The notes under the pieces: generated by a model | Databases searched by the model: none | The model's input: the letters and a program-made list of their open reading frames with translations, nothing else | What the model was told of the DNA's origin: nothing | Program-made: the position numbers and the translations under genes | Source: an uncultured Clostridia bacterium | GTDB lineage: Bacteria > Bacillota > Clostridia > Christensenellales > Borkfalkiaceae | DNA: 64,000 nt | Direction of reading: 5' to 3' | Assembly (NCBI GenBank): GCA_947088135.1 | Contig: CAMUFJ010000007.1 | Coordinates: 2,870 to 66,869, forward strand | In this document: positions 11,059-40,631 of the stretch, one piece after another | Numbering within the stretch: the first letter of the stretch is position 1 | Layout of the letters: the number at the start of each line of letters is the position of its first letter

Positions 11059-11534
11059 AATTGCCTCCTAAGCGACGTTACATCGCTTTTTTGTTTCGCT
11101 AATAGTTTACCACGGTTTCTTTTGAATTACACCCTATTTTTTGTTTTTTTTATTCTCCATGTAAATTTTTCGCTCTACGGAGGACGGAATGGATTCTACT
11201 CAAAGTTTTGGACTCTACTGTGGGTAGAATTGCTGTTATTTGCCTATTTCGGGCGATTTGCGCTCGGTGGGGGAGCGCGGCGAGCTGGCGGCGGTTTTTT
11301 CCGGCAGAAGAGGGCATATAAAAGCGTCCGTGCATTGTTTAGGGGGCGGGCGGAAGTACGGAAGCGCGGGGAGAGAAGCGCTTTGCATTTATGATGAATT
11401 GAAAAAAATGGGAAATACAACACTTTTGCAGGCATATTTTCCAAACAAGCGTCCGAATTTATTTCCAAAATACGCCGAAAATGCTTAAAAAAACGCGTTT
11501 TTCGTCCAAAAATGCAAAATGTGCCGAAAAACAG

Positions 11535-11564
11535 TTGCCAAAACCTACGCGTCTATATTATAAT
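11535..11564 (+). promoter_or_regulatory. Sigma-A-type promoter of the giant surface-protein operon
   Basis: TTGCCA-18 nt-TATAAT, about 180 nt upstream of the preferred start codon. Confidence 0.6.
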
Positions 11565-11643
11565 AAAGGCGCATTAATGTTTTAGTTTGCCAAACGACGG
11601 GCTTTTTTTGAATCAGCGAGTTTTTTGTTTCCCAACAAAAAAG

Positions 11644-11666
11644 GGAATCCGTGTGCCACGGATTCC
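11644..11666. other. Perfect 10-bp hairpin in the 5' leader (GGAATCCGTG-tgc-CACGGATTCC)
   Basis: Direct reading. The minus-strand version is followed by a T-run. Confidence 0.55.
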
Positions 11667-11741
11667 AAAAAGCTTATCCGGACGGCTGAAAACGGGAGGG
11701 TTTTCCCTGCGAACGCAATTCATGCGGGAAAAGGGGAGCTT

Positions 11742-14700
11742 ATGCAAAAAGAAAAACTCAACAATCGGTACGGTGAAAAACCGGCGAGCGGGGGCTTCTT
11801 GCTTACGCTTTCCTCAAACCGCCTGCGCGGGCTACGCACGGCGGGTCTTTTCATGCTGTTTATTTGTTTGTTGTTGAGCTTCGTATTCGGGTTCGGCTTC
11901 CGACGTTCCGATTCGAAGCAACTGACGGCACACGCTGCCGAAGACTGGGGCGCTACCTGGAACGCGGCGATCACGGCGAGTTCTACGGACAATCCGCAGA
12001 CGGTGAAACTTACCTCCGCTTGGGCAACCAATACGGGCACGACTTCGGGCAGCGGATTCAGCAGTAACCGTCTTTACGTTCCTGCGGGAAAGAGCATCGT
12101 ACTCAATCTCAACGGGCAGACGATCAACCGCGGGCTTACTTCCGCAAACAACTACGGCAGTGTGTTTTACGTATGCGGTACGCTTACCTTGCAGGGCAGC
12201 GGTTATGTCCGCGGCGGTTACATAAACGGCAGTTACAGCTCCGCCTACGGCGGAGGAATTCATATTGCAAGCGGCGGCGTCGTGAACATCGAGGGGCCTA
12301 CGATCGGACCTAACACTTCGAGAGCGGCGAATACCGCGGCGGGCGTTTACGTTGCAAGCGGAGGTACGCTGAATTTAAAGAGCGGAAATATCGGAAACAG
12401 CAGTAACGTGAACACCGCCACCAATTCCAACGCGGCGGGCGGCGTGTTCGTTGCTAGCGGCGGCGTCTTCAATATGACGGGCGGAGGTATCTACAACAAC
12501 TCCGCTTCGGGCACTAAGAGCGGTGCGGGCGTTCGCGTCGTAAGCGGCGGTACGTTTCATATGACGGGCGGAAACATCCGCCGCAATACCGCTTCGGGTA
12601 CGTACAGCGGTGCGGGCGTTTATCTCGACGGCACGATGAAGATGACGGGCGGTCAGATAGGCTATTACAGTTCTCAATCGTCGTCTTACTATAACAACGC
12701 CACAAATTCTACGGGCGCGGGCGGTTTGTACTATGCCGAGAACGGTAAACTTTCCGTGGGCGGAAGCGGGAGCATTTACTACAATCTCACTTCGGGTTCT
12801 TATACGAAGGATATCGTATTTGCTTCGGCAACCTCTAAAATCAACGTAATTTCTCAGATTTCAAGCACTTCGTACCGTTACGGCGTATACAAATCGGGAG
12901 CGGGCTCTTTTACTTCGGGCTGCGGAACGTACTGCACTTCTCCCGCCTCCGTTTTCGTCGTGCAAAACAGCGGTACGTACAAGAGCATGACGTTAACGGA
13001 TAACGGCGTAACGGAAGTCGCCCAAATCAATAAAACGAACGCCGCGGAAAACTGGTCTTACTTCGTACAAAAGAGTATCGATACCAAAACGCAGCAGACG
13101 GTAACGCTTTCGGCGAACTGGACTGCGAGCAGCGGGAACTTGGGCACGGGGACGGGTTTCAGTAGCGGCAGGATTTACGTGCCCGCAGGCGCGGATATCG
13201 TGCTTAATCTGAACGGCTACACCGTGGATAGGGGACTCACGAGTGCGAATAGTTACGGTAACGTGTTTTACGTTGCGGGTTCTCTCACCATTAAGGGCAC
13301 CGACGGCAGTTTTATCAAAGGCGGATATACCAACGCTTCCGGCAGCAATTCGCGCGGTGCGGCAATTACCGTAAACGGCGGTACTTTGAATTTGCAGGGA
13401 GGCGTGATCGGTTCAAACCGTTTAACTTCGTACAGTTCGAGCACGAGCTACACCGGTTCGAGCGGCGTTTACGTTATAAACGGCACGTTTAACATGACGG
13501 GCGGTTACGTCGGCAAGGCTTCCTACGGGAATACTGCCGCGTCGGGCGTTTACAATGCAGGCGGCGTCTGCGTAGCAGACGGCGGTACGTTCAATCTGTC
13601 TGGCGGGTATATTCAGAACAACACCGCTTCCTATACTTCCAACGGCGGCGCCGTCAGCGTTTTAAGCGGCGGTAAGTTTAATATGACGGGGGGGTATATC
13701 CGCAACAACACTGCGTCGAATGCGACGAGTGCGGGCGGCGTATTTTTGGCGTCCTCCGCAACCGCGACTTTTACGGGCGGACAAATCGGAAACAGTTCGA
13801 GTTATGCGAACAAGGGCACTTCCACAAACAGCGTGGGAGGGGTTTACGTTTCGAACGGCGCTTCGGTCAATTTGGGCGGAAGCGTCAGAATTACGGCAAA
13901 CACGGGCGCTATCGCGTCGAATTTGTATTTCGCTTCGGCTATCGGCAAGGCAACGGTCGTGAGCGCATTCAACAGCGCGAAGGTCGGTATCGTCAGAAAC
14001 GGAAACGCCGACAACTATGCCGTGAGCGGGGATAGACGCAATTTCACGGTAGATTATTCCAAATACAATACGGCGAGCCCTACGAGCTTTTTCACGGCGG
14101 ACGCTGTGGCGGACGGGCTTGCCACGCATGAAATTTACCTTGCGGAAGACGAAGCTTCCCTGAAATGTCTGGTGGGGAGTGCGAACTGGTCGTATGCCGT
14201 CGCGCGCAGTATTTCGGACAAGAGCACGCAAACGGTCACGCTCGCTTCCGCCTGGAAGGGGGTAAGCGGTTCTTTGGGCTCGGGCACGGGTTTCAGCAAC
14301 GGCAGAGCCTACGTGCCCGCAAACTCGAATATCGTGCTCAACCTCAACGGTTTTACGGTCAATCGCGGGCTTACCTCCACCAACAACTACGGAAGCGTGT
14401 TCTTCGTAGAAGGCACGCTCACCGTAAAGGGGAATTCGGCGAGCTATATTTCGGGCGGTTACACCAACAACGCTTACGGCGCGGGCGTTCACATTTTGAG
14501 CGGCGGCGTCGTGAATTTGGAAGGCGGCGTTATTGCCAAAAATACGGCTACCGCTACGTTCAGCGGCGGCGGCGTGTACGTCGCGAGCGGAGCGACCTTC
14601 AACATGAAGGGCGGATACGTAGGAAGCGGTTCTTCCGCGTATAACACCGCCACGAACGCCAATTCGGCGGGCGGCGTGTTCGTTGCAAACGGCGGAACGT

Positions 14701-17700
14701 TCAATATGAACGGCACCGCTGCAACGCCTTATATCTATTACAACCGTGCGAACGGTGCGACGAGCGGCGCGGGCGTGTATCTTGCCGGAAGCGGCGCGGT
14801 CTTCAACATGGAGGCGGGTTATATCCGCTTTAATACCGCTGCGGGCGCGACGAGCGGCGGCGGGGTCTACCTCAACGGCACCATGAACATGACGGGCGGA
14901 CAGATCGGGCGTTACGATAATACCGGTTACGGCAATACTGCGAGCAATACCGCGACGGGCGCGGGCGGTATCTATTATGCGGGCGGAAGCCTTTCCGTGG
15001 GCGGCGACGCGAGCGTTTACAACAACGTCAGCGGATCGTCTTACGGCAAGGACGTCGTATTCGCCAAGGAAACCCTGAAAATAAAATTTATCTCCGCCAT
15101 GAAAAGCACGAGTTACCGTTTCGGTATTTATAAAACGGGCGTGGGCGCTTTTACAACGGATTTCGGCAAATTCAACAGCGAGAACTATTATGCGACCTAC
15201 TTTGTCAATTACAATTCGTCCTATACCGTCGGGCGCGAAACGGTCAACTCGGTCGTAGAGGTTACGCTCGTCAGTACGGGCGGCGCGGAAAACTGGTCGC
15301 ACGCCGTCCAGCGGAGTTTGGAAACCAAAGAACAGCAGACGGTTACGCTTACGCAGAATTGGAATGCCAATGCTTCCAGCTTCGGCACGGGAACGGGCTA
15401 CGACGGCGGCAGGCTTTACGTGCCCGCAGGCGCGGATATCGTGCTCAGAATGGGCAGTTACAGCATCAACCGCGGGCTCACTTCCGCAAACAACTACGGA
15501 AGCGTGTTCTATGTGTGCGGTACGCTCACCATTCAAGGCAACAATACGTCCAATTATATCCGCGGCGGTTATGTAAACGGTTCGAACTCCACTGCCCGCG
15601 GCGGCGGCGCGCACGTTGCCAACGGCGGCGTATTAAACTTGCAGAGCGGTATTTTCGCGGGCAACAGCTCGACGGCGTCCTCTTACGGCGCGGGCGGCGT
15701 TTACGTTGCAAACGGCGGTACGTTCAATATGAGCGGCGGTTACGTCGGTTATAACAACACGACCAATTCGAACATTACTCTTAGGGGATACAATTACAGC
15801 TCCGGAACCAAGGGCGCGGGCGGCGTTGTGGTCATGAACAACGGTAAGTTCAACATGACGGGCGGCTATATCTACGGGAATACTGCGGGCGGCGCAACGA
15901 GCGGCGGCGGCGTGTTGCTGTACGAAGGCGCGACCATGACTTTGACGGCGGGCCGTATCGGCACAAGCTATGCAAACAGGGCGACCGGTACGGAGAGCGC
16001 GGGCGGCGTTTTCGTCATGAGCGGTGCGAATCTCATTCTCGGCGGCGGAGCTTGCTATATCAATAACAACACGGGCGCAGTTGCTCCCAACCTGTATTTC
16101 GCTTCGCCTACGGGCTATGCGACGATCGTCGGCAGCTTGTCGGGTACGATCGGCGTTAAGAGAAGCGGCGATGCCGATAACTACGCCGTCGATCCGAGCA
16201 AACGAAATATCACAAAGGATTATTCCAAATTCAACTCGTCGCTGGGTTGTTTTAAGGCGGACGACAGCGCCTATCACGTTGTTCAACTGCGGGACGGCGA
16301 AGTGGTTTTACACTGCAAACGGAGCAGTGCGAATTGGTCGTATGCGGTCGCGCGCAGTCTTGCGGATAAGAGCACGCAGACGGTCACGCTCGAAGAAAAT
16401 TGGGTTGGAACGAGCGGAAGTCTGGCGGGCATATATTCGACGGGTTTCAGTCAAGGCAGAATGTATCTGCCTGCGGGCACGTCGGTGATCCTCAATTTGG
16501 GGAGCTATTCCATCAACCGCGGTTTAACAAGCGTAAACAACTACGGAAGCGTTATGTATATCTGCGGAACGCTTACCATAAACGGCGGTTCGGGTACGTA
16601 CATACGGGGCGGTTACACCAACGGTTATTATTCGTCCACGTACGGCGGAGGCATTCACATAGCGAGCGGCGGGAACGTTACCATGAACGGGGGCGTTATC
16701 GGAAAGAATACGACGACGCACAGTTATGCGGGTGCGGGCGTTTACGTCGGGAGCGGCGCGGTATTCAACTTAAAGAGCGGGTACGTCGGCGCTTCGGGCT
16801 ATGCGAACACTGCTACGAATACATACAGCGCGGGCGGTGTTTACGTTGCGGACGGCGGCGTGTTCAATATGTCGTCGAATAGCGCAAACGTCATTTACAA
16901 CACGGCGTCTAACGCCAATTCGGGCGGCGGCATCTACGTTGCAAGCGGCGGAACGTTCAATATGACGGGCGGTTATATCCGCTACAATACCGCGTCGGGG
17001 GCGACGAGCGGCGGCGGCGTGTATTTGGCGGGCGTCATGAAAATGACGGGCGGAAACGTCGGGCGTTCCGGAAGTACGGGCTATGGGAATACGGCTTCGC
17101 AGGCTACGGGCGCAGGCGGTATTTACTATGCTTCGAGCGGCAATCTCTCCGTGGGGGGCGACGCGGTCGTTGCCAATAACATCACTTCGGGCAGTTACAC
17201 GAAGGATATCGTGTTTGCTTCCGAGAAATCGAAAATCAACGTCGTAAGCAACCTCGGTTACAGTACTTCGAGCTCAAGCTACCGTTTCGGAATTTACAAG
17301 ACGGGCGTAGGGGCGTTTACAAACGGTTTCGGAACTTACTCGAATAATACTTCTTACTATTCGCCTACCTTTATTTCGCAGAACAGCGCCTACACGCTGG
17401 GTACGGTGAAGGTAAATAACGTGCTCGAAGTATCGTTCACGAGCATTAACGGAACGGAAAATTGGTCGGAAGCGGTGAAACAGAGCCTCGCCAACAACGG
17501 CGCGCAACAGACGGTGAAACTCACGAGGAATTGGGTTGCGACAAGCGGAAGTTTCGGTACGACTACCGGCTATGCAAACGGCAGAATTTACGTGCCCGCG
17601 GGCGCGAATATCGTGCTCAATCTCAACGGCTACTCGGTAAACAGAGGACTTACGAGCGCGACCAATTACGGAAGCGTGTTCTACGTATGCGGTACGCTTA

Positions 17701-20700
17701 CCATCGAGGGCGGCGGGACGAGCGGCGTCGTGAGGGGCGGTTATGCCAACGGCAACGCATCCTCTGCGCGCGGCGGCGGCGTTCACGTCGATACGGGCGG
17801 TATCTTCAACCTCAAAAGCGCAGTCGTCGGCGCGAATAAGAGCAACTGCACCTACGGCGGGAGCGGCGTATACGTTGCCAACGGCGCTACGTTCAATATG
17901 TCGGGCGGTTATATCGGCGGTTATACTACGTCCGTTGCAAACTATTCCTACGGAAAAAGCAGCGGTGCGGGCGTTTACGTCGGGAGCGGCGGCACGTTTA
18001 ACATGACGGGCGGATACGTTCGCTACAACGTTTCTTCGGGAACGAAGAGCGGCGCGGGCATTTTCATGAGCGGGATCGTGAAGATCACGAACGGGCAGAT
18101 CGGTAACGGTTCGAGCTATGCAAACAAGGCGACCGGTACGGAGAGCGCGGGCGGTATTTACGTTACGAACGGGGCGACTTTGTCCTTGGGCGGAGGTTCC
18201 GTTGCCGTATACAATAACACCGGTACGCTTGCACCCAACGTCTATTTTGTAAACGCTACGGCAAAGGCGACCATTACGGGCGCGTTCAGCAGTACGAGCT
18301 ATAAAATCGGCGTAAAGCGTGCGGGCTATGCGGATAATTACGCCGCCAACAACAGCAGTAATTTCACAAGCGGATGGTCTGCAAGCAACTCGGGCAATCC
18401 CGTGAGCTATTTCGTTTGCGACGACACGGCTACCCACAAAATTATTCAGTCGTCGGACAAAGAGGGCGCGTTCGAGTGTACGGTGAACGGCGTAAATTGG
18501 GAGAACGCCGTCAAACAAAGCAAAGCGGACGGCAAGCAAAAAATCGTCAACTTAACGGGAAACTGGACCGCAAGCGGGAGTTTCACTTCGATCATTTCAA
18601 CCGCTGAAGGGTACAGCAACGGCAGACTTTACGTGCCCGTGAGGGCGGATATCGTGCTCAATCTCAAAGGGTTTACCTTGAACAGAGGGCTTTCGAGCGC
18701 GAACAACTACGGTAGCGTGTTCTACGTTGCGGGTACGCTCGTCATCGACGGAAACGGCAGTTCGAACAGCATCGTAAGGGGAGGATATGCCAACGGCTAT
18801 TACTCATCTACCCGCGGCGGCGGGATCCACGTTGCGAACGGCGGAAAAGTAACGCTTCAAAACAACGTGACGTTGCGCAACAACACGTCTTCGGGCAGTT
18901 ACGGCGGAGGCGGCGTATACGTATCCGACGGCGGTTTGTTCACCTTGCGTTCGTCTTACATTCACTATAACTATTCCACGAATACATACAGCGGCGCGGG
19001 CGTTAGCGTCATGGGCGGCGGTAAGTTTGTCATGGAAAGCGGATCTATTTACTATAATAGGGCTTCGGGCAATTACAGCGCGGGCGGCGTATTTATTGCG
19101 GACAAGGGAACTTTGGACATTACGGGCGGACTGATCGGACATTCCAGCAGTACGAGCTATGCTAACGTATCCACTGCCGCGACGGGCGCGGGCGGTGTTT
19201 ACGTTGCAAGCGGCGGTATTCTCAACGCGGGCGGAACTGCGAACATCCGCAACAACGGCATCGGTTCTACCGTAACCTACAACACGAGGGACGTCTATCT
19301 TTTGAGCAATACGGCGAAGATAAACGTTATTTCCAGACATACGAATTCGAGCTATAAAATCGGCGTTTACCGTTCTGGCAACGGCGTGATCACCTCGGGC
19401 TACGGTAAGGCGGGAAATACCAATTCGCCTTCGACCTTCTACGTTTGCGAAAATACGACTTACACCATGCTTTCCGAGGGCTCGGGCGAAACGCTCGAAG
19501 GGTCGTTGCTCAGCGGAAATAATGCGGAAAACTGGTCTTACGCCGTTCAGCAGAGCCTCAACAATAATGGCGCGTTGCAAACGGTGACGCTTACCAAGAA
19601 TTGGTCGGCTTCGGGCGGAAGCTTCGGCTCTGGCACGGGCTATGCGAGCGGCAGACTTTACGTTCCCGCGGGAGCGAATATTACTCTCAATCTCAACGGC
19701 TACTCGGTAGACAGGAGACTTACGAGCGCGAACAACTACGGCAGTGTGTTCTACGTTGCGGGTACGCTCACCATTCAGGGTACAAATTCGAGCTATATCC
19801 GCGGAGGCTATTCCAACAGCTATTATTCCTACACGCGCGGCGCGGGCATTCATATTTACGACAACGGCACCGTGAACATGGAAGGCGGGGCGATCGTTTC
19901 CAACCGCTCCACGGGCAGCTACGGCGCGGGCGGCGTATACGTTTCGAGCGGCGCGACCTTCAACATGAAGGGAGGCACGATCGGAGCGAGCGGGCTTGCC
20001 AACACCGTAAGCGGTTCTCGCAGCGGTGCGGGCGTGTTTGTTGCCAACGGCGGAAAATTCTTCATGTCGAACGAAAAGTCCACGAGCTACATTTACTACA
20101 ATACGGCTTCGGGTACTTACAGTTCGGGCGGCGTTTACCTCGACGGCAACTCCGCGTTCGAAATGACGGGCGGTTACATCGGTTATTCGTCCTCCGCCTA
20201 TAATACGGCTACCGGCAATTACAGCGCGGGCGGCTTGTACAATAACGGCGGAACGTTTACCATGACGGGCGGTTCTTTCCGCAACAATCGCGTTACGGGC
20301 ACGTACTCCGCGGGCGGCGTATACGTAAACAGCGGTACGTTCACCATGACGGCGGGGTATATCGGTTCGAGCAGTACGAGCTACGCGAACTACGCCACGA
20401 ACAGCGCGGGCAACAGCGTAGGCGGGGTGTACGTAAACACGAACGGCAAGGTTTCCTTGGGCGGAACGGCGTTTATCTGCAATAACCAAACGTATAACCG
20501 CTATACGGGAAATTTGTACTTCGTAAATCCGAATACGAGCGCAACCATCGTATCGTCTTTTGCGAGCGGTGCGCGCATCAATATTTACCGTACGGCGAAC
20601 GTTACCACCAAGCCGGACGGCAGCGCCATGACGAACGGCTTTGTCGAAAAGAACGGTTCTGCGCTTTCCACGAGTTATTTCTATGCGGACGTTACGCTCG

Positions 20701-29700: not shown

Positions 29701-32700
29701 CGCCCACGCGTGCGGGCACCGTTACGCTGAAAATCACGGTCGGGGAAACCGAACAGTTTGTGGAAACTTTCTTTACGGCCGAGGTCGCGATCACGCCCAT
29801 GACGGCGGAAATCGCTTGGGAAAAGACGGAGTTCGTCTATAACGGCGACGGTCAAGTTCCCACGGCGCGTGTCACCAACTTGCTTTCCGCAGATAAGGAT
29901 AAGGTGGAAGTCGTCGTAGACGGAATGCAGACGGACGCGGGAAGTTATACGGCGACGGCGATTCGTCTTACGGGCGACAATGCGGTCAACTACGTGCTTT
30001 CCGAGAGCGGAAACACCACCGAGTTTAAGATCGACAAGGCGGAAATCAACCCCGTCATCACCCTGTCCCGCGTGTACTGTCAGATTCCTGCCGAAATCAC
30101 GCTCGAAGGCAATCTCGGCGACGCGGAAGTCGCATACACCGTCGTAGACGGCGGAACGGGTTCTGCGGAAATCAGCGGGAGTACCATTACGCCGACCGTC
30201 GAGGGTTCGGTCATCGTGAAAGCGGTTGTGGCGGAATCGAAGAACTATTACGGCAAGACGACGCAGGCGGTCATCGTCATCGAAAAGAAGAAGATCGTGC
30301 TCGGGCTTGCCCAAACGGAGGTCGTCTACGGCAATGAGATCACTCTTGTCGTAACGGGCAACGAAGAGAACGGCGCGGTGAAGTTCTCCGTAGTCAACGA
30401 TACGGGTTCTGCAACCGTTTCCGAAAGCGGCGTTTTAAAGGGCACGGGCGCAGGCACGGTCAACATTATTATTACCGTTGCGGAAACCGACAGCTATCAG
30501 TCGTCGAGCGAAACGGTCAAGTTTACCGTTTTGCCCCGTCAAATCGGCGGACTGAGCTGGGCGGTGCCCGAGCTCGTCTATAACGGCGAAGCGCAAGCGC
30601 CCGTTGCGTCGGCTTCGGGGATTTTGAGCGGAGACGAATGCAACGTCACCGTTGCGGGCGGCAAGGTCAACGCAGGCATTTACGCCGCGGGCACGGCTTA
30701 CGCATCCGCGCTCTCCAACCCCAACTATACGCTCGGCTCCGTCGGAGGAATCAACGCTCCCGAGTTCACGATCGAAAAGGCAGATCCGACCATTACGCTT
30801 ACTACGCAAAAGGCGACGCTCGGCGTTCCTCTCACCCTCGAAGTGAGCGGAAACGACGGCGAAGGCACGGTGAAGTACGAGATCGTAACTTCGGCGGGCG
30901 GAACGGGCGCGGCGGTCATCAACGGCGACGAATTCATAGGCACGAAGCTCGGAGAAGTGTACGTGCGCGCCACCGTGTCGGCTACCGCTAACTACAACGA
31001 GGCTTATTGGAACGGTACTGTCACGATCGAAGCTCCCGAGATTCCTTTGGAACTCACCGAAACGGAAACGGTTTACGGCGACAACTTGAAGCTCGTCGCC
31101 AAGGAGTACGAGGAGGGCGTCGTTTCGTTCAAGCTCGGCGAGGGCGGAACGGGTTCTGCGGAGATCGTAGGCAATACGCTGATTCCCAAGAGAGCGGGTA
31201 CTGTCACAGTCATTCTCTCCGTTGGTGCGTCCGACAGTTATCAGGGCGCAACCGAGAATGTCACCGTTACCATCAAGCCGCGCGCGGTCGGTGTAACTTG
31301 GGGCAATTTGTCCTTAGTCTACAACGGCACGGAGCAGGTCGCTTCCGTCACGCTTTCCAACTTAGTCGAAGGGGATACTTGCGAAGTCACCGTAGGCGGC
31401 GCGAGCAGCGACGCGGGCAAGCATACCGCGACGATCACCATGCTGGGCAACGAAAATTATATTCTTGCTGAGGACGCGGAGAAGAGCAAAGAGTTCGAAA
31501 TTACGCCCTGTATCGTCGTGCTCGAATGGACGGTCGGCGATTATACCTACAACGGAAAAGAACAAAAGCCCGACGTGAAAATATTGAATCTGATCGCGGG
31601 CGACGAGTGCGAGATCACCGTTACGGGGCAGAAGGACGCTTCGCTCACCGCAAAAGCGACGGCAACCGAGCTTTCCAACAAGAACTATACGTTAGAGGGC
31701 TGTGAAAACGCAACCGTGAACTTCGTCATCAAGCAACGGACGATTAGCGTCGAATGGGGTGAAACGCAGCTTGTGTACAACGGCAGACCGCAAACGCCCG
31801 TGCCTGTTTTAGGCGGGCTTGTGGAGGGCGACGAATGCGAGCTCACCGTTACGGGCGCGCAAAAGGACGTCGGTAACAATTACTCTGCAACCGTAGAGGG
31901 AGTTCTCAATCCTAACTACGCGCTCGAAAATACAAGTACCACCAAGTACTCCATTAAGCCCTACGAGCTGGAAATTACGGCGCAAGATCTTGTCAAAGAG
32001 TATAACGGCGAGTATCAGAAACCCGATATCTTCGTGACGCCGCTCGACGAGAATGACGACGTGGTGCTTACGCTCGAAGGCTTGGGCGAATACGGCGAAT
32101 ACAAAGTGGGCAAGTACGAAATCAAGCTTGTTCTCAGCGGTACGGCTAAGGGCAATTATGCCGTTAAGGAAGGGCAGGAAACGCTTACGTTCGTTATTAC
32201 GCCCATGGAAATTCCCGTGCTCGTCACGCCCAAAGACGTGACCGTGATTTACGAGGGAGCGCCCATTACCGCCGACGACATCGAAGGTTGGTACGTATTG
32301 GAATTACAGGGCGCGCTCGCTCCCGCCGATTCCGATCTCACGCCCGAAGAGCTGTTTGCAGGTTTGGTTTTAAAACCCATTATCAAATCGGGCGAAAACG
32401 TCTTGACGGAAATTACCGAAAACGGCATTTATCTGCTTACGCCCGATATTTCGGACGAAGCGGTCGTCTGCGGGAACTACGCCTTGAAGCTGATCATTGA
32501 CCCCGACGACGAGTACTGCGATCTGATCGTCAACGGCGAAAGCACCGACGTCATCACGCTGAGAGATGAATCGAATTATCAATTTATTACCAAGACGGAA
32601 GAGAACGGCGGTAACTATCGGTTTACGTATGCGGAAATGGGTTGGACGCATGGCGATCACGACGTCGGCAAGGTAGATAAGTACGTCATAGGGCAAATCA

Positions 32701-33140: not shown

Positions 33141-33316
33141 GGGGAAGAGCAGACTTTCGTCGCTATGCGAGAAGCGAAAGGCCGAATAAAGACAAAATGC
33201 ATCGAGCAATTTAGTTTGTCATTTCGAGTTTAAGCTTGGAATGACAAACCTTGCTGCGCGCATAGCAAAAAAGAAAGTTATAAACTGTAAAATTACTTCC
33301 ACATAGGAGAAACAAC

Positions 33317-35608
33317 TTGAAACAAAAAGCGTTAAAAATCGGAACAACGCTGTTGCTCGGCATTACCGTGCTTGTGGGGCTATTGACAAGTGCGCTTTTT
33401 ACGCTTAATGCAACGCAATCGGCAAGCGCTGTCGAGGGCACGATCACCTCTTCGGTAGCGGTCGAGGAAGGCGACGAAGTTCTTGCGGGCGACACGGTTA
33501 CACTCACGGTTACTGCAAGTTCCACGTTGGGTTCAGCTTATTTTTGGGGAGCGGTTACGCTGACCTTCCAAATTACCGATGATGACGGCAATAATATCGA
33601 TCCGTCTTATATCGAAAATTTAGAAGTGCTGGATTTCGAAGGTGATTTCAGCGATTGCGTCAATAACACAGTGCAGGAAACATTGGAAGAAGGAGGAATT
33701 TCCCATTCCACCATTCGTTTCGCATTGTTAAACGATGCCTTGAACGAAAGCCTTACAATGGATAAGCCTTGTACGATGAAGGTCAGGTTTAAGCTTGCAG
33801 AAGGTACTCCGGGCGGAACAAAAATCAAATTTCAAATAGATGATTATTTTAAACAGGAAACGCAGGTTACATATTATTCGGTTAGCGGTTACGACGAAAA
33901 CACCGTAGATACCGATTCGAATGCAGATATGTTTGTAATCGACAGCAGTGCGACGATTACCGTTCGCGAAAAGAGCTCCGACAATACGCTGTCTGCTTTA
34001 AAGGTAGGTACGACCGAAAACAATGCGATCAGCTATCCGAAAGAAGGAGAAACTGCGGTTGCGGATTCGATCAACTATGATTATGCCGAATCCGCCGTGC
34101 TTTCGAGCATCAATATTACGCCGACCGCCGCTAACGAATATGCTACCGTTTACATGGCGGCGGGCAGTACGGCTCCCGAACAGACGGAAGCAAATTTAGT
34201 CGAAAGCGGGAAAGAGAAGAATATCGCGCTTACTTCGGAGATCCGCACGGTCACTATTTTGGTGAAAGCCGAATCGGGCGACACGAAAACATATACCGTA
34301 ACCATCGTGGATAAGTACGTCGCGCTTTCCGATCTTGTAATAGAAGTGGGAACCAAGACGGAGGGCGTTACCAAAATCGGCTTGGGGGAGGGCGTCGCGT
34401 TCGACCCCGAAACGCTTACCTACACGGTAGACGTTCCGAGCGACTATGCTTCTTCGGAAACGGGCGTTAAAATTACGCCTACGATAGCGGAGGGGCACGG
34501 CATTCAGGCGACGGTCGCGCTTGCGGGCACAAACAGCTCCCCCGAAAACAATTCGGTTGCAAGCGGATCTTCCGTGCAGGTCACGGGTATTGCAAACGAC
34601 GGCTCTTTGACCTTGACCGCGACCGCTTCCGACGGCGTGACCGCAAAAGCGTATATCATTACCTTTAAGCTTTGGAGCGTGGAAACGGGTACGATAGACT
34701 TTAAGGTGAAGGGCGAACGGGAAGCTCCTTACGAAAGCGACGCGGAAAAAGCGGCGGAGAAGAAAATCGATTATTATTTCCTTTTAACGGACGAAGCGGA
34801 ATGTAAGGGTAAATTTCTAATTACTCCTTCCGTTACGGATATTTCCATTCAAATTCAACCTTTCGGAGGAACGGCTGAAAAGTACGACGCGACGAAAGAA
34901 TACGGTGCGGGGACGTATAGCATTATTCTTACGGCAGATGCAGGCAACACGAAACAGTACGTCGCTTCCCTATCCAAAATGGAATACTTGGAATTGGCGG
35001 CGGAATCCACCTTTCAGTTTATATTCGAGGAAACGACGGGAACGGGTGCGCGCGCGAAAAGTTATCTTCGTACTTATCACGAGAAGGGCATGACGCACGG
35101 TGTGGACGATAAACAGTTTGAAAAAGTTGTGTTGGGAAATATCGCACCTAAGACCACAATCAATATGTTTCTTGCCAACGTTTCGCCTTCACAGCGGAAC
35201 ATGATCCGCATCTATAACAATAAAGATCGATTGTTGTACGATTGCGGAGCGGATATCGAAGGGATCGATAAAGCAAATTACGATAAGTGGAGCAAATACC
35301 GTATATCAACAAGTTGGTATGTACAGTACGGGGGGACGGCAGAAAATCCTTTGGAAACGGTCTATATATCGGTTTTGGGCGATACGAGCTGTAACGGGAC
35401 TATCGATTCGGCGGATTCCGTAAAGATGAGCGCTCATATTTCCAAAAAGAAATTGATAACGGATTTGGAAGTGCGTTTAGCAGGTTACGTCACCAATGGC
35501 GGCAGTATAGCATCTAAAGATATTACGAAGCTAAACCGAATTATCACTTTAAAAGACAAGATCGAGGATTGCCTATACAAGCCTGCGGAGAATGCGACGG
35601 GTGCGTAA
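33317..35608 (+). CDS. Secreted 763-aa protein with an N-terminal cohesin-like domain, cadherin-like beta-sandwich repeats, and a conserved C-terminal module plus dockerin-like domain
   Basis: TTG start 7 nt after AGGAG, with a signal peptide ending SASA/VE. The cohesin-like pattern is LAGDTVTLTVTASS...VTLTFQI...KVRFKLAEGTPGGTKIKFQI. The cadherin-like repeats show NTLSALKV...TKTYTVTIV. The C-terminus has GDTSCNGTIDSADS...NGGSIASKDI. Confidence 0.85.
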   Translation: MKQKALKIGTTLLLGITVLVGLLTSALFTLNATQSASAVEGTITSSVAVEEGDEVLAGDTVTLTVTASSTLGSAYFWGAVTLTFQITDDDGNNIDPSYIENLEVLDFEGDFSDCVNNTVQETLEEGGISHSTIRFALLNDALNESLTMDKPCTMKVRFKLAEGTPGGTKIKFQIDDYFKQETQVTYYSVSGYDENTVDTDSNADMFVIDSSATITVREKSSDNTLSALKVGTTENNAISYPKEGETAVADSINYDYAESAVLSSINITPTAANEYATVYMAAGSTAPEQTEANLVESGKEKNIALTSEIRTVTILVKAESGDTKTYTVTIVDKYVALSDLVIEVGTKTEGVTKIGLGEGVAFDPETLTYTVDVPSDYASSETGVKITPTIAEGHGIQATVALAGTNSSPENNSVASGSSVQVTGIANDGSLTLTATASDGVTAKAYIITFKLWSVETGTIDFKVKGEREAPYESDAEKAAEKKIDYYFLLTDEAECKGKFLITPSVTDISIQIQPFGGTAEKYDATKEYGAGTYSIILTADAGNTKQYVASLSKMEYLELAAESTFQFIFEETTGTGARAKSYLRTYHEKGMTHGVDDKQFEKVVLGNIAPKTTINMFLANVSPSQRNMIRIYNNKDRLLYDCGADIEGIDKANYDKWSKYRISTSWYVQYGGTAENPLETVYISVLGDTSCNGTIDSADSVKMSAHISKKKLITDLEVRLAGYVTNGGSIASKDITKLNRIITLKDKIEDCLYKPAENATGA

Positions 35609-35680
35609 AGAATCGGGAATGCAATCAAAAGGAATCGTTACAAACACAAAACATACAACAATTCTTGAAGGAGAATTCCA

Positions 35681-38600
35681 GTGAAAAAAGCAATTAAACA
35701 CATATCGCTTGCAATAGTATCAGTCGTATTCTTTCTTTGCGTTGTGGTATTCGGCGCAAATATCGTTTTTACAAATAAAACAGAGAAAGCATTTGCGGTA
35801 AATCCGAATACGACAGTAACGCTATCGGCAGACAAAACGCGAGTCGTTCCGGGCGATACCTTTAAGCTTACCGTTACGGTTACTTCTACCATTCCAAACG
35901 GAACTTGGTCTGCGTTGGACTTTATGGTTTCCCCCTTGCAGGCCAACGGGGAATTCGACGCAACTATGTGCCCGTATTTATCGTCCCCGAGTCATACGAC
36001 GAACATGACGACTTATACGGACAGTTCGGCGGACTATTTCGGGGTCAATCCGAACGAGGAAGTACCCGGACTTCGTATTTCTTTGGCATGGAAGAGCGGT
36101 AACGAGATTTCCGTTTCTACGGCGTGCGTTTTCGAATTCGACATTGTTGTTGCGGAAAATGCGCCTGGCGGTACGTCCATTCAATTCGGAATTGAAAAAT
36201 ACGATACGAACTTCGTCGATTATAACGACATGGAAATCGAAGTTACTGCGGATACGGACGAGTTCGCTTGCAACACCGTAACCGTTACGGTCGATGCTCC
36301 CAGCAGCGATGCGACGATGAAGGGGCTTACCGTCGGAAGCGGTTCGGCAACGAGCGGGGTTGCCGTTGCAGAGCAAATGCAATGGAAAAATCCCGCCGAA
36401 AATCTTCAAAATTTCCGCGTGAAAGTGGACGCGAACGATTCCAACGCGACCTATCAGGTGAGCGTAGGGAGCGGTACGGCTACGGCGGGCAGTTTCCCTG
36501 CCGACAAAACGACGGGGGCTCTCAAAAGCGGGCAGGAAAGCGGCAACCTCAACTTAATGCAGAACAACAACACAACGGGCATCGCCAAGGTGTTTATCCG
36601 TATCATCGCGCCCGATAAGGTGGCGACCAAGGAATATTGCCTTACCGTAACCAGCAACTACGTGCGGATTCGTATGTTAACGGTAACGCCTCAGCGCCCC
36701 GGCGGCGCGGCGGCGGTGCCGAAAAACGGTTTGGACGGAGCTTTCAGCGGTACTAAATATTCTTACACCGTATTTGTTCCGAGCGACGTGACCGATTCTG
36801 CGGGCGTGCAGTTCGTTCCTCAAATTCCGGGCGGCTACGGCATTTCGGAGGATATCGCGGTAACGGACGTTGCAAATTGCACGGCTTCGTCGAGCGTGAA
36901 GAACGGGGCGACCCTGCTCGTGACGAACGTCAAAAACAACGCGACTCTCAAACTGACCGCTACCGCGGCAAGCGGAGATACGCAGACCTATACCTTTACC
37001 TTTAAAACGGTGAACATCGACACGTCGATCGCTTCCTTTACCATGACGGGTAAAAACGACGGCGCGACCTACAACAGCGACAGCACCAAGGCGAGCGCGG
37101 ATTATTATTTCTCCCTGCCTTCTCCCACGGGCTTCCAAGGCACTTTTCACATTCAAGCGGCGCAAACCACTTCTAAGGTTACGGTAAACGGTGCGGCGTA
37201 TAACGCTTCCACGCAGTACGGCGCGGGAACGTATACCGTTCGGGTAACGGCGGAGGCTGGGAACACGGAGGATTATTCTGTTACCGTGGAAAATAAATTC
37301 GACGCGGCGAAATTCGAATCGATTTCCTTATCCATCGGCGGAGGAAGCTACGAGGACATTCTCGCTTCGGGCGCAGACGGAAAATGGGAAGGATTGGAAA
37401 CTTCGAGCGCGGTTTATACCCGCGAAGTGCCCGTATCCGCCAATACCGAGTTCAAAATTAAGGGAACTGTTTCCGCAGGTGCAAGCGTAACGGTAGGGGG
37501 CGGACTTTCCGAACCGACCGCAGGACAGGAACAAGTGCTCACGGGCAGTTTAAAGCACGGGAAAAACGAATTCCGCGTGAGTTTGAGCACGGACGAGGGC
37601 ACGAAGGTTTATACTTTCGTTATCAACGTGCTGGAAAAGAAGAACACGATTACGGGCATCACCCTTACCTATAACGGAAAAGCAATCGACGGATTTGCCT
37701 TTAACCAAAATACCAAAGAATACAATATCATTGTGCCGTATTCCACGGCAAACGCACAGCTTGCCGTTACGACGGACGGCACTTACACCCGCGTGTTTGC
37801 GGACAACGGCGATCAGTTCAAGAGCGATTCGGCAAAGCGCGAGCATACTTCGAACTTCCTCTTTACGCTTCCCAACCCCGACGCGACGGTGAACACCGTG
37901 AAGTTCCACGCCGTGAGCGACATGAACCTGTCTGGGCTGAGCGAGGCGGGGGATTGGTACACGATCACCGTTACCCGATCTGCGGCGAACAAGGACGTAA
38001 GTTTGAACAAGCTTACGATCACGATCGGCACGAAGGAATATGAAATTTCGCTCAAAGACGGACAATTTACCTATCCGCTTGAATTGACGGACGAAACGCT
38101 CGATTCGGCAAGCGTTTCCATTACGGCGATCCCTAACGCAAGCACTTCTACCGTTTCGGGCGATACGAGTTCCGATCTGAAATTCGAGAGCTCGAAGGGG
38201 ATCAACAGCTTTAACGTAACGGTTACTTCGGAAGACGGCGTTACGAAACAGACGTATACGATCGCCGTTTCCCGTAACGAAATCACGCTCAATAAGGATA
38301 TTTCCATTAAGAACGTTACGATTTTGGGGAACGATACCGTACAATATTACAACGGTGCGCCTTCCATAGGAAACGTAGTTGAAATATCCGTGCCCTTCGG
38401 CGTTACGCGCGTGAATATTACGGCGATGCCCGGCTATTCGGGAGCAAGCATCAAGGGCGACGGCGCGGTTGAGCTTGCCGATACGGCAGGCGTAGCGAAG
38501 GAAATCAAAGTTTACGCCGTTGCGGAGGACGGTGTAACCAATCAGGACGGCGCAAGCGCGTATATCTTTAAAATTACCCGTCAGGAGCAGCGCAAATCGG

Positions 38601-40354
38601 GGCTTACCAACCTCACGATCGACGGCGTGCAGGTAAACGGCTTCAATACGGAAAAAATCACCTATAACCATCAGGTGGTAAGCACGACGGAAAAAATCGA
38701 AATCCGTGCGATTGCGGAGGAGGATTCGGCAACCGTAAAAATCAACGTCGGTGTCGAGATTGCAAAGGGCGCAGGCGACGCGACGGCTAGTTATACCTTT
38801 ACGGCGGCGGCGGGCGAGCGCGATTCCGTTACATTTACGATTTCGGTAGAGATCGATGGCGAGGCAAAAACGTATACCGTTGTCGTGGTGCGCGCATCAC
38901 AAAGCCCTCATCTTGTTTCGCTGTATGTCGGTAACTATAAAATTACCGATGTAAAAGGAAATATCATCGGGAACGAAGATGCCACCGCACTTGCGCCTGC
39001 GCCGCAAACATTTTATGTAAATATTGACATCAATTTCGGAACGGTAATTGAAATTTCTGCAAAGGCGAGCGATGAGCTTGCAGAGATGAAAATCGGAAAA
39101 AATATTGAAATGTTCATCGGTACGTTTACGGTTCAGGAGGATTTGACCTCCCAGCTTGAAAATAGCGCCACAGCAAGCGTACGTCTAACCATCAGACCTG
39201 CGGGTTCGGTCGGTATAGAGGCGAGCTACGACATTCACTTCACTGTGCTCACGAGCGACACCTCTGCGACGATCAATATTTTTAAAGATTCGAACGGCAC
39301 TGACCCGCTCGCCGACTTTAATAACGAGTACGTCGTGAATGCGGATCTGCCCGTTTACGGACCTTATACCGTGGATCAAGCGAGCCTGAATTTCCAAATC
39401 AACCTTGCCGACTTGGGCGGTGCGAAGGGAACTTATCAGGTGCGCCGCCGCAATAACAAGAACGAGGACGTGCTCATGGTCGATAACGGCACGGCGGTGG
39501 ACGGAGGCGTGCGCCTTGCCTACGGCACGAACATCTTCTGCGTAAAAATCACTTCGAGCGATAAGAAAGCCGAGCGTACGGTCGTCATCGTTATGGAACG
39601 AGGCGGCGTAGGCGCGAAATCGATCGAGGTAAAGGGGAGCGAGGACTTCCGCTTTGACGCGGGCGCAACGAGCTTCATCTGCTCGGTCGGAAACGGCGTG
39701 ACTTCGCTCAAAGACCAAATTTCCGTTACGCTCAACAACGACGACCTCGAATATAAAATCGTCGGTGCGGACGGCGAGCTCCCCGAGGGCGGATTTGCGC
39801 AAATCAAGGTGGAAATTTACGCCAAGAGCGCGGGGGCTTCGGCAACAGCCGACGCCGACCCGTTAAAGACGATCTACATCGACGTATTCCGTCAGGGCGC
39901 ACTCGTGACGGTTGCGGAACAGACGCCCTTGTGGCAGATCATTCTTTTCTGGGCGCTCGTCGGACTTGTGGTCATCGAGCTTATCATTATCATTGCGATC
40001 CCCAAGCGCAAGAAGAACGCACAGCAGGTTGTGGTTGCGGCGGCTCCTATGGCGTACGCGCCCGTGCAGCCCGTGCAAACGGTACAGCCCGTTCAGCCTC
40101 AAGCTCCTCAGACTCCCGCAGCGCCTCCTCCCACGGCTCCCGCGCCTCCTCCCGCGCCTGCTCCCAGACCCGCCGAACCTTCCCGCTCGGCGAATGCGAA
40201 GCCCTTCGTCAGCCCCGATAACAGCGGTTATTACGGCAACAACGGCGGATATTACGGGAACGGCGGTAACAGCGGTTACGGCGGTTACGGAAACGGCAGC
40301 TACGGCGGCGGTTACGGCGGTTACGGCAATAACGACGATAACGATAAGTATTAA
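35681..40354 (+). CDS. 1,557-aa membrane-anchored scaffold-like protein. It has a signal peptide, a cohesin-like domain, about ten cadherin-like beta-sandwich repeats, a single TM helix, and a Pro-rich then Gly/Tyr/Asn-rich tail.
   Basis: GTG start 7 nt after AAGGAG. The cohesin-like pattern is VVPGDTFKLTVTVTS...ALDFMVSP...VFEFDIVVAENAPGGTSIQFGIE. Repeats of the form L(T/S)(V/I)...YT(F/V/I) recur. The TM is LWQIILFWALVGLVVIELIIIIAIP followed by KRKK. The tail reads PVQPVQ...APPPTAPAPPPAPAP and then GYYGNNGGYYGNGGNSGYGGYGNGSYGGGYGGYGNN. Confidence 0.85.
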   Translation: MKKAIKHISLAIVSVVFFLCVVVFGANIVFTNKTEKAFAVNPNTTVTLSADKTRVVPGDTFKLTVTVTSTIPNGTWSALDFMVSPLQANGEFDATMCPYLSSPSHTTNMTTYTDSSADYFGVNPNEEVPGLRISLAWKSGNEISVSTACVFEFDIVVAENAPGGTSIQFGIEKYDTNFVDYNDMEIEVTADTDEFACNTVTVTVDAPSSDATMKGLTVGSGSATSGVAVAEQMQWKNPAENLQNFRVKVDANDSNATYQVSVGSGTATAGSFPADKTTGALKSGQESGNLNLMQNNNTTGIAKVFIRIIAPDKVATKEYCLTVTSNYVRIRMLTVTPQRPGGAAAVPKNGLDGAFSGTKYSYTVFVPSDVTDSAGVQFVPQIPGGYGISEDIAVTDVANCTASSSVKNGATLLVTNVKNNATLKLTATAASGDTQTYTFTFKTVNIDTSIASFTMTGKNDGATYNSDSTKASADYYFSLPSPTGFQGTFHIQAAQTTSKVTVNGAAYNASTQYGAGTYTVRVTAEAGNTEDYSVTVENKFDAAKFESISLSIGGGSYEDILASGADGKWEGLETSSAVYTREVPVSANTEFKIKGTVSAGASVTVGGGLSEPTAGQEQVLTGSLKHGKNEFRVSLSTDEGTKVYTFVINVLEKKNTITGITLTYNGKAIDGFAFNQNTKEYNIIVPYSTANAQLAVTTDGTYTRVFADNGDQFKSDSAKREHTSNFLFTLPNPDATVNTVKFHAVSDMNLSGLSEAGDWYTITVTRSAANKDVSLNKLTITIGTKEYEISLKDGQFTYPLELTDETLDSASVSITAIPNASTSTVSGDTSSDLKFESSKGINSFNVTVTSEDGVTKQTYTIAVSRNEITLNKDISIKNVTILGNDTVQYYNGAPSIGNVVEISVPFGVTRVNITAMPGYSGASIKGDGAVELADTAGVAKEIKVYAVAEDGVTNQDGASAYIFKITRQEQRKSGLTNLTIDGVQVNGFNTEKITYNHQVVSTTEKIEIRAIAEEDSATVKINVGVEIAKGAGDATASYTFTAAAGERDSVTFTISVEIDGEAKTYTVVVVRASQSPHLVSLYVGNYKITDVKGNIIGNEDATALAPAPQTFYVNIDINFGTVIEISAKASDELAEMKIGKNIEMFIGTFTVQEDLTSQLENSATASVRLTIRPAGSVGIEASYDIHFTVLTSDTSATINIFKDSNGTDPLADFNNEYVVNADLPVYGPYTVDQASLNFQINLADLGGAKGTYQVRRRNNKNEDVLMVDNGTAVDGGVRLAYGTNIFCVKITSSDKKAERTVVIVMERGGVGAKSIEVKGSEDFRFDAGATSFICSVGNGVTSLKDQISVTLNNDDLEYKIVGADGELPEGGFAQIKVEIYAKSAGASATADADPLKTIYIDVFRQGALVTVAEQTPLWQIILFWALVGLVVIELIIIIAIPKRKKNAQQVVVAAAPMAYAPVQPVQTVQPVQPQAPQTPAAPPPTAPAPPPAPAPRPAEPSRSANAKPFVSPDNSGYYGNNGGYYGNGGNSGYGGYGNGSYGGGYGGYGNNDDNDKY

Positions 40355-40361
40355 AATCTTT

Positions 40362-40387
40362 CCCCCGCACAAAAGTGCGGGGGTTTT
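40362..40387 (+). terminator. Strong intrinsic terminator ending the surface-protein operon
   Basis: CCCCCGCAC-aaaa-GTGCGGGGG followed by TTTT. Confidence 0.85.
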
Positions 40388-40592
40388 GCTTTGCCGTGTT
40401 GTTTTATTTTGTTTTTTCGGTCTTATCTTTTCTGCATTATTCTCAATACGTAAACGCGCGTGAGAATTTATAAGATGACGGTTGACGCGCGACAGCGGAA
40501 AGGACGGGAAATGAGGTGAGCCATGCGAGGGAAAAATATTGCGCAATTCTTTAATAAAAAATAAAATACTGCAAAAATTTTTAAAACAGCTA

Positions 40593-40621
40593 TTGCATTT
40601 TGAAGACGAATGTGCTATAAT
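40593..40621 (+). promoter_or_regulatory. Sigma-A-type promoter of the GH51 gene pair
   Basis: TTGCAT-17 nt-TATAAT. It overlaps the track ATG at 40610, which rules that start out. Confidence 0.65.
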
Positions 40622-40631
40622 CATTACAAGT

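Follow-up and report, generated by a model that had tools for sequence, protein, structure and literature searches.

A predicted non-cellulosomal cohesin-dockerin surface-display operon in an uncultured Clostridia bacterium

A 64-kb stretch of a contig from an uncultured Clostridia bacterium (hereafter the window, meaning the whole of this stretch) carries, at 11535..40393 on the + strand, three co-oriented genes that we call g1, g2 and g3. The analysis of their products indicates that this operon probably encodes a cohesin-dockerin surface-display system that is not a cellulosome. In the proposed assembly, g3 would be held in the membrane by a C-terminal transmembrane helix, and its cadherin-like run would project an N-terminal cohesin-fold module outward. 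The g2 protein would be a secreted adaptor with a cohesin-fold module at its N-terminus and, at its C-terminus, a dyad of an X module and a dockerin (hereafter X-Doc). The g1 protein would be a secreted, fibrillar adhesin-like cargo of 7,132 aa with 11 heads, 35 stalk domains and a C-terminal X-Doc. After export through the Sec pathway, the X-Doc modules would bind the cohesin-fold modules non-covalently, and g1 would be tethered to the cell by g3, in direct contact or with g2 in between. We infer the cohesin-dockerin binding, its Ca dependence, the order of the tiers, the adhesive function of g1 and the co-transcription of the three genes.

The N-terminal modules of g2 and g3 were compared with known structures. 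Neither single-sequence nor profile searches of the PDB sequences with these cohesin-like modules returned anything significant; fold comparison alone was informative. The AlphaFold 2 (AF2) model of the g3 module reached a predicted local distance difference test score (pLDDT) of 96.6 and a predicted TM-score (pTM) of 0.91. In a Foldseek comparison of this model with the PDB, cohesins of types I, II and III occupied ranks 1-11 and about 38 of the top 50 places. The matches at ranks 1-11 had E-values of 5e-7 to 9e-6, with TM-scores of 0.48-0.61 when normalised by the query (TMq) and up to 0.74 when normalised by the target (TMt). The matches included 5lxv_C (E 5e-7), CaCohA2, 3kcp_A, 2y3n_A, 4fl4_I, 4n2o and 2zf9, and the best one normalised by target was the Clostridium perfringens cohesin 2vo8 (TMt 0.74). 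Many of the matched cohesins were solved in complex with dockerins.

The g2 module was linked to the g3 module by profile comparison. Because the profiles of g2-type and g3-type modules align in hhalign with a probability of 98.7% (E 4.7e-16, 162 columns), the g2 module can be assigned, at the level of sequence, to the same fold family. With a joint profile, an exhaustive HMMER search through 1.84 billion representatives found 74 proteins, from which an alignment of 50 sequences of the cohesin-like family was built. Only G20 and W38 are conserved at 90% or more in this alignment, and there is no invariant K, N or D. Relatives match Pfam Cohesin at 13-16 bits; these matches are below threshold but recurrent, and they cover about 110 of the 139 profile positions. 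A preliminary description of this DNA had called both N-terminal modules cohesin-like and had named a failure to fold as cohesin-type jelly rolls as grounds for abandoning the assembly. Since both modules fall in the cohesin-fold family, these grounds did not arise. The assignment was borne out in fold and family, and fell short at the Pfam Cohesin threshold.

The second half of the proposed pairing lies at the C-termini of g1 and g2, both of which had been described as dockerin-like. For g1, this description was confirmed by Pfam Dockerin_1 (PF00404), which matches with a score of 31.2 bits, above its cutoff of 22.9. The C-terminus of g2 alone gave no Pfam match. Over their last approximately 200 aa, g1 and g2 share 40% identity (E 3e-47), and the unit that they have in common consists of an X module of about 130 aa and a dockerin of about 70 aa. 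A profile of 14 X-Doc modules matched solved dockerins across both of their repeats with E-values of 1.2e-6 to 5e-5, among them 2ccl_B of Xyn10B from Clostridium thermocellum (E 1.2e-6), ScaB 4uyq_B, CaDoc0917 and 5lxv_B of Ruminococcus flavefaciens. The dockerins of R. bromii (9qf8, 9qf9) also matched this profile. A homologue search with the X-Doc profile, which was limited by a word index, gave at least 4 proteins.

The AF2 model of the g2 X-Doc (208 aa; pLDDT 94.3, pTM 0.89) showed the three-helix dockerin topology. Its last approximately 60 residues superpose on solved dockerins at 1.1-2.4 Å, and the top 16 Foldseek matches were all dockerins, with the dockerin chains of 4fl4 also among the matches. 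The TMt was 0.84 against 2ccl_B and 0.87 against 1ohz_B, with root-mean-square deviations of 1.1 Å and 1.2 Å, respectively. The homology to g1, the profile matches and the predicted fold thus agree with the earlier assignment of a dockerin-like C-terminus to g2.

A dockerin contains a duplicated F-hand, namely two Ca-binding loops of the form D-x-[ND]-x-[DN]-G-x-[IV]-x-x-x-D with a helix behind each. In both proteins the first of these loops has the canonical form (DVNGDGLVNSSD in g1 and DTSCNGTIDSAD in g2). In the second loop (MIVNNGQISAAD in g1 and YVTNGGSIASKD in g2), acidic or amide ligands are absent at positions 1, 3 and 5, while G6, I8 and D12 are retained throughout the family, as judged from the alignment to 2ccl_B and from the invariant columns of the X-Doc family. 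The double Ca loop that had been proposed for g1 therefore holds for the first loop and not for the ligands of the second.

Each dockerin carries a fused X module, a feature absent from the preliminary description. This conserved module of about 130 aa lies directly N-terminal to both dockerins. Since the pTM is 0.89 over the whole dyad of 208 aa, the model implies that the X module and the dockerin pack rigidly, as in the X-Doc dyads of types II and III. The X module showed no convincing structural relative in Foldseek, where the X-Doc chains 4iu2_B and 4wkz_A were matched with a probability of 0.06-0.08. Its other weak likeness was only to the UFD domains of SUMO-E1 (probability at most 0.35), and the comparison showed no homology to the Ig-like X modules of CipA, CttA and ScaB.

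The two kinds of module were also found together in relatives. Within reach of a word-indexed search there were nine homologues of g2, and g3 had six close orthologues. The order of giant gene, g2 and g3 is retained in five relatives (L001, L002, L003, L033 and L034). When all open reading frames (ORFs) were scanned with the cohesin-like and X-Doc hidden Markov models (HMMs), the window, which represents 64 kb of the genome, contained exactly two cohesin-like and two X-Doc modules, as did each orthologous operon. A distant relative, L036, has an expanded operon (1..21278) with four cohesin-like and three X-Doc modules. In view of this larger set, and of the 64 kb that the window covers, the self-contained character given to the assembly in the preliminary description is tentative. 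Its first three genes encode a giant protein with an X-Doc, a protein of 760 aa with a cohesin-like module and an X-Doc, and a protein of 218 aa with the cohesin-like module only. The remaining genes encode a protein of 425 aa in which a cohesin-like module is fused directly to an X-Doc, an ORF of 35 aa, and a protein of 1,600 aa with a cohesin-like module, a transmembrane helix and a Pro/Gln tail. Elsewhere, a cohesin-like module and an X-Doc occur in one chain in P0067, P0070 and P0075. The cohesin-like module is always a single terminal copy and never a tandem stalk repeat. From their distribution in these sequences, the cohesin-like and X-Doc modules appear to travel together and to be shuffled like connectors.

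The proposed interface modules differ from the rest of the proteins in their divergence. Across six operons, which are not independent of one another, identity was 20-63% for the cohesins and 31-61% for the dockerins, while the protein bodies were 56-99% identical. Between L002 and L033 the g3 body is 99% identical, with only 33% identity in the g3 cohesin and 31% in the g2 dockerin. This difference looks like a clean replacement of a cassette at the junction between the 3' end of g2 and the 5' end of g3. The Mantel correlation was 0.93 between the g2 X module and the g3 cohesin (5 of 720 permutations reached the observed value), 0.79 between the g2 dockerin and the g3 cohesin (11 of 720) and 0.65 between the g2 dockerin and the g2 cohesin (9 of 720). 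The corresponding values against the bodies were -0.20 for the g2 dockerin and the g2 body (483 of 720) and 0.24 for the g3 cohesin and the g3 body (157 of 720). The interface modules are hypervariable cassettes that co-vary on conserved bodies. This fact suggests that they are lineage-specific lock-and-key pairs.

Several observations weigh against a cohesin-dockerin assembly. Pfam Cohesin (PF00963) matches the g3 module at 14.5 bits (E 0.041), below the cutoff of 24.1, and does not match the g2 module. The TM-scores of the g3 module to cohesins are moderate when normalised by the query (0.54-0.61), and its Foldseek matches include non-cohesin beta-sandwiches, namely the CLIPPER/DUF11 structure 9ifr at rank 12, YcnI and integrin calf domains. 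In both dockerins the ligands of the second Ca loop are degenerate. The divergence comparison draws on a small, non-independent set of operons. In addition, the partner modules are neighbours in the DNA, the g2 X-Doc lying next to the g3 cohesin and the g1 X-Doc next to the g2 cohesin; because of this adjacency, one recombination tract could yield co-variation without any functional coupling. It is worth noting that the correlation between the g2 cohesin and the g2 dockerin spans the conserved middle of g2, and that recombination of a single tract fails to explain it.

A further observation bears on the order of the chain. Within a genome, the dockerins of g1 and g2 are 47-53% identical, against a between-genome mean of 38% (four genomes), and the true pairing of g1 and g2 dockerins was the best of 24 permutations. 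In L036 the dockerins of the giant and of the g2 equivalent are 71% identical, with the third dockerin at 39-41% to both. Residues of helix 3 are common to the dockerins within a genome, such as LNRxITLK in the window and LNQVIML in L001. These comparisons indicate concerted evolution of the two dockerins of a genome, which would fit a shared specificity better than two orthogonal ones. An ordered chain requires two orthogonal specificities. The strict linear order of anchor, adaptor and adhesin is weakened for this reason, and we consider it clearly less probable than the assembly in general. Of the three-tier complex claimed in the preliminary description, a cohesin-dockerin assembly with an anchor, an adaptor and a giant cargo was retained as probable, with the strict order as a less probable form of it.

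A tentative alternative is therefore that the dockerins of g1 and g2 share one specificity and dock on the same cohesin or cohesins. In this case g1 could sit on g3 directly, and g2 would either compete with g1 or polymerise head-to-tail, its dockerin binding to the cohesin of the following g2 copy, which would result in a non-covalent stalk of variable length capped by g1. The concerted evolution described above would be expected from such sharing. On the other hand, the cohesins of g2 and g3 share only about 28% of their residues, with no convergence within a genome (28.9% within and 28.1% between genomes), and one dockerin specificity would need to suit both of these very different cohesins. 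Gene conversion or a constraint from the X module could instead drive the concerted evolution of the dockerins, and the comparison is of four genomes only. For the two cohesins, gene conversion was rejected because their identity within a genome matches the level between genomes.

Returning to the cohesin-dockerin assembly, it could be argued that the N-terminal modules do not function as cohesins. They might be generic beta-sandwiches at the tip or in the stalk, similar to DUF11/CLIPPER or CnaA domains, or ligand-binding domains. The dockerins would then bind another partner or stabilise the C-termini, and the three genes would be independent neighbours. In addition to the missed Pfam Cohesin model and the non-cohesin Foldseek matches mentioned above, this interpretation is favored by weak BatD/DUF11-like matches that recur at the first strands of the modules. 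These matches are only about 25-45 residues long, whereas the weak Cohesin matches extend over most of the profile, and cohesins take the first 11 Foldseek places and most of the top 50. The definition of CLIPPER domains, which usually form tandem repeats in a stalk, rests on an isopeptide triad of Lys and Asn/Asp (10.1101/2025.04.25.650565), and a conserved Lys/Asn/Asp triad is absent from the family, in which G20 and W38 alone are near-invariant. Since the triad is absent and every protein has the module as one terminal copy, the CLIPPER/DUF11 reading was judged unlikely. The module, moreover, shares operons and even single chains with X-Doc modules, and, unlike stalk domains, it is hypervariable and co-varies with the dockerins. 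On balance, it is unlikely that the N-terminal modules are something other than functional cohesins.

A cellulosome-like enzyme complex for plant polysaccharide, tied to the two downstream genes for GH51-type alpha-L-arabinofuranosidases (40610..45391; synteny kept in L001 and L003), is very improbable, since no catalytic domain or carbohydrate-binding module (CBM) was found in g1-g3 with Pfam and NCBIfam, the arabinofuranosidases have no dockerin or X-Doc by Pfam and the module HMMs, their genes lie beyond a strong terminator, and L036 has a leucine-rich repeat protein (1,494 aa, LRR_5) downstream instead. A functional link to these enzymes was rejected on the absence of a dockerin or X-Doc and on the different neighbour in L036.

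The remaining architecture of the three proteins is compatible with surface display. Signal peptides were recognized on all three; the hydrophobic segment near the N-terminus of g1 spans aa 30-54. From its sequence, g1 appears to be a secreted giant adhesin-like protein with a head and a stalk, for which an adhesive function is conceivable. The eight long units of the head are 44-54% identical to each other. Searched as single units and as a profile of eight, the head units gave no sequence match in Pfam, NCBIfam or the PDB, PbH1 and Pmp included. A beta-solenoid fold of the heads may be supposed. The 11 beta-helix heads of the preliminary description thus correspond to 11 true repeat units, with no sequence match that backs the beta-helix. 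Similarly, the MBG stalk that had been claimed consists of 19 MBG-type domains and 16 domains of a second type, as distinguished with self-trained HMMs. Pfam MBG_2 (PF18676) is marginal, barely passing its cutoff of 25 in a stalk segment of 500 aa (25.9 bits).

The g2 protein, a putative adaptor, has in order a signal peptide, the cohesin-fold module, cadherin-like domains and the X-Doc. In g3 the signal peptide and the cohesin-fold module are followed by a long cadherin-like run, the transmembrane helix, the residues KRKK and a tail of about 115 aa. The cadherin-like domains of g2 and g3 are given as counts of Pfam stretches; those of g3 are beta-sandwiches matched by PF12733 at 74 bits in 5 stretches. 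The transmembrane helix is kept in the orthologues and in L036. The tail, with (VQP)n and Pro-rich repeats, is kept in L001, L002 and L003, and a Pro/Gln/Met-rich version is present in L036. No LPXTG-like motif was found in g1, g2 or g3, and no SLH match was obtained with Pfam. As had been stated earlier, g3 has a C-terminal transmembrane anchor and neither a sortase nor an SLH signal. It would seem reasonable to regard g3 as a type I membrane protein and a putative anchoring scaffold, with its cohesin at the end farthest from the membrane.

A second group of proteins with cohesin-like modules was observed in the HMMER search. These proteins (P0030-P0046, P0058, P0065 and P0068; 230-580 aa) have an N-terminal transmembrane anchor and a cohesin-like module at the extreme C-terminus, which ends in ...LSIKAK(S)N. 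They contain one to several Cys/His motifs of the form H..Y.Y....D...H.K.C..C....E.H, possibly a zinc ribbon. Such proteins would represent a second way of anchoring a cohesin-like module. A contig scan with motifs from the cadherin-like region of g2 led only to distant cadherin-like proteins, the majority of them from Paenibacillus; no orthologue was among them.

The layout of the three genes was analyzed for transcription signals (Table 1). The promoter-like site upstream of g1 is the sole strong one in the operon region, and the terminator behind g3 (stem 40362..40383) is the sole strong one on the + strand. The spacers between g1 and g2 (33141..33316, 176 nt) and between g2 and g3 (35609..35680, 72 nt) contain no + strand terminator and no promoter-like site. 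Because a promoter-like site lies in front, a terminator behind and neither in the spacers, the layout fits one transcription unit. Both the bracketing of the genes by one promoter and one terminator and the absence of a terminator between g2 and g3 had been noted before and were reproduced here. A weak terminator-like match at 35736..35760, with 4 G-C pairs, lies within the signal-peptide codons of g3; terminator-like matches around it are scarcer than in shuffled sequences (12 seen, 15.4 expected). The spacer between g2 and g3 holds two stop codons. In all three genes the Shine-Dalgarno sequence is located 5-8 nt before the start codon, and the start residues are the same in the orthologues, some of which have ATG.

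The leader of g1 (11565..11741, 178 nt) contains a strong hairpin that is not a terminator for the operon, since no T-run follows it on the + strand. Two further inverted repeats were observed in the spacer between g1 and g2 (about 33155..33181 and 33214..33248), with no T-run behind either. The hairpins in the leader and in this spacer may be elements of RNA processing or stability. No Rfam family was matched in the g1 leader or in this spacer, and a riboswitch in the leader was rejected because the Rfam matches were at chance level only. The GC content is 55.9% in g1, 47.5% in g2 and 52.8% in g3, with 46.5% and 48.3% in the flanks. The high values of g1 and g3 probably come from repeats rich in Gly, Ala and Thr and not from a foreign origin.

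Table 1. Features of the g1-g3 operon, with positions in the window. RBS, ribosome-binding site.
Feature	Position	Strand	Description and basis
Sigma-70-type promoter-like site	11535..11564	+	TTGCCA-18-TATAAT; consensus match 11/12
Hairpin in g1 leader	11644..11666	+	10-bp inverted repeat; A-run before, no T-run after
g1	11742..33140	+	7,132 aa; ATG start, GGGGAG RBS; ORF and translation
g1 head region, aa ~68-3900	11943..23441	+	11 Gly-rich units of 248-415 aa; anchor motifs NWxxAV, LNLNGYTVNR
g1 stalk, aa 4032-6819	23835..32198	+	35 tandem domains of ~76 aa; self-trained HMMs
g1 X-Doc module, aa 6936-7131	32547..33137; dockerin proper ~32922-33089	+	Dockerin_1; X-Doc family HMM E 1e-82
g2	33317..35608	+	763 aa; TTG start, AGGAG RBS
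g2 N-terminal cohesin-fold module, aa 38-220	33428..33976	+	hhalign to g3-type family; module HMM E 3e-36
g2 X-Doc module, aa 556-761	34982..35605; dockerin proper ~35369-35581	+	g1 homology, AF2 model, Foldseek
g3	35681..40354	+	1,557 aa; GTG start, AGGAG RBS
g3 N-terminal cohesin-fold module, aa 39-208	35795..36304	+	AF2 model and Foldseek
g3 C-terminal transmembrane helix, aa 1416-1443	39926..40009	+	followed by KRKK; hydropathy scan
g3 cytoplasmic tail, aa 1444-1557	40010..40351	+	Pro/Gln/Val-rich, then Gly/Tyr/Asn-rich low-complexity
Intrinsic terminator	40362..40393	+	9-bp stem, 8 G-C pairs, then T-rich tail

The flanking genes are ordinary chromosomal ones, encoding DegV, a sigma factor, the two arabinofuranosidases, malic enzyme, PRPP synthetase, Pth, Mfd, UppP and MurG. 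Two replication proteins of the REP_ORF2-G2P type, known from filamentous or small single-stranded DNA phages, are encoded on the + strand at 6734..7678 (E 7e-15) and 63046..63933 (E 3.5e-10). The first adjoins a cluster of six tRNA genes (7887..8393, - strand) and is preceded by three ORFs without a Pfam match (2790..6614). Both loci are probably small integrated phage-like elements. A further tRNA gene is located at 57372..57444 (+). Between this tRNA gene and the second phage-like Rep gene, 57568..62370 (+) encodes a protein of 1,600 aa with a sacsin-type domain at the N-terminus and a superfamily 1 helicase (AAA_11/AAA_12) at the C-terminus, which may be a gene of defence or of a mobile element. 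At 52148..54325 (+) there is a protein of 725 aa with a signal-like N-terminus, no Pfam domain and neither a cohesin-like nor an X-Doc module.

Cohesin-dockerin pairing is known chiefly as the glue of enzyme complexes. If the proposed assembly is true, the same glue builds a multi-protein adhesive fibre that is rooted in the membrane, and in which the giant adhesin is non-covalently bound and exchangeable. Both the cohesin-fold family and the X module escape the current models of Pfam and NCBIfam, and surveys would undercount cohesin-dockerin systems for this reason. The interface modules, about 30% identical on bodies that are up to 99% identical, would offer naturally diverged cognate pairs as a panel on which the evolution of binding specificity could be studied. 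Such a panel could also yield orthogonal connectors for protein engineering, again provided that the assembly is true. A bolder reading, which we regard as quite unlikely, is that the cassettes are strain-specific locks and keys, so that the giant re-attaches only to its own lineage as a costly but privatised public good or a tag for kin recognition, and that g2 forms, through its own cohesin and dockerin, a head-to-tail polymer serving as a non-covalent, pilus-like stalk whose length varies, with g1 as its cap and g3 as its root. If this were the case, the operon would represent a surface-fibre assembly of a Gram-positive type that needs neither sortase nor pilus machinery.

The system was finally compared with those already described. 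By analogy, the nearest precedent in mechanism would be the pairing of X-Doc and CohE in Ruminococcus, and the type II anchoring of C. thermocellum would be next. In Ruminococcus, X-Doc-cohesin pairs tether adhesins to the cell (PMC7456326). As in the pairing of CttA or ScaB X-Doc with the ScaE cohesin of R. flavefaciens and R. champanellensis (PDB 4IU3; PMC7456326), a non-enzymatic protein, there a substrate-binding one, ends in an X-Doc dyad and a cohesin is anchored to the cell. The X module is packed against the dockerin there and, by the AF2 model, also here, and R. flavefaciens cohesins (5lxv, 4n2o, 2zf9) are among the best fold matches of the g3 module. There are also differences. The anchor here is a C-terminal transmembrane helix, whereas ScaE is attached by sortase; the X module is unrelated in fold to that of Ruminococcus, the second Ca loop is degenerate, and the cohesins are below the Pfam threshold. 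The cargo is a head-and-stalk protein of 7,132 aa and not a small cellulose-binding protein, and an adaptor is encoded in the same operon.

In C. thermocellum, the X-DocII of CipA binds the CohII modules of SdbA, OlpB and Orf2p (3kcp, 4fl4). The hierarchy from scaffold to anchor through an X-Doc dyad is similar, and structures of this system were matched by both the cohesin-fold module (3kcp_A, 4fl4_I) and the dockerin (4fl4 chains). The C. thermocellum anchors have SLH modules, and the scaffoldins are loaded with enzymes and have many type I cohesins and a CBM3. The proteins described here have one cohesin each, no enzymes or CBM, and a transmembrane helix as the anchor. The operon is also not a cellulosome, with no carbohydrate-active enzyme or CBM in g1-g3, one cohesin-like module per protein and no SLH or LPXTG signal.

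Outside cellulose degradation, cohesin-dockerin pairs occur in the glycosidase and toxin complexes of C. perfringens and in the amylosome of R. bromii. Putative adhesin complexes with cohesins and dockerins have been proposed for anaerobic methanotrophic archaea (ANME) and sulfate-reducing bacteria (SRB) (PMC10553843), and a giant ORF of Omnitrophota has nine dockerins (PMC10066038). The likeness lies in the use of the modules outside cellulose degradation and in giant surface proteins that bear dockerins. These systems either serve to link enzymes or consist only of domain annotations, with no operon defined. The present operon is compact and conserved, and it combines one giant dockerin-bearing cargo with an adaptor, a transmembrane anchor and hypervariable cassettes.

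The plan of g1, a head on a repetitive stalk, resembles that of fibrillar adhesins that have MBG and Ig-like domains in their stalks (PMC8286594, PMC9210967), and the stalks of g2 and g3 are cadherin-like beta-sandwiches. Typical fibrillar adhesins of Gram-positive bacteria are single chains that are attached covalently through LPXTG and sortase, whereas the attachment proposed here is non-covalent and involves two or three proteins. A search of the literature found no description of this arrangement. What appears to set the system apart is a compact operon with a transmembrane-anchored stalk bearing a single cohesin, an adaptor of cohesin and X-Doc, and a giant head-and-stalk protein ending in an X-Doc, together with a clade of cohesins that Pfam misses, a new X module and hypervariable interface cassettes.

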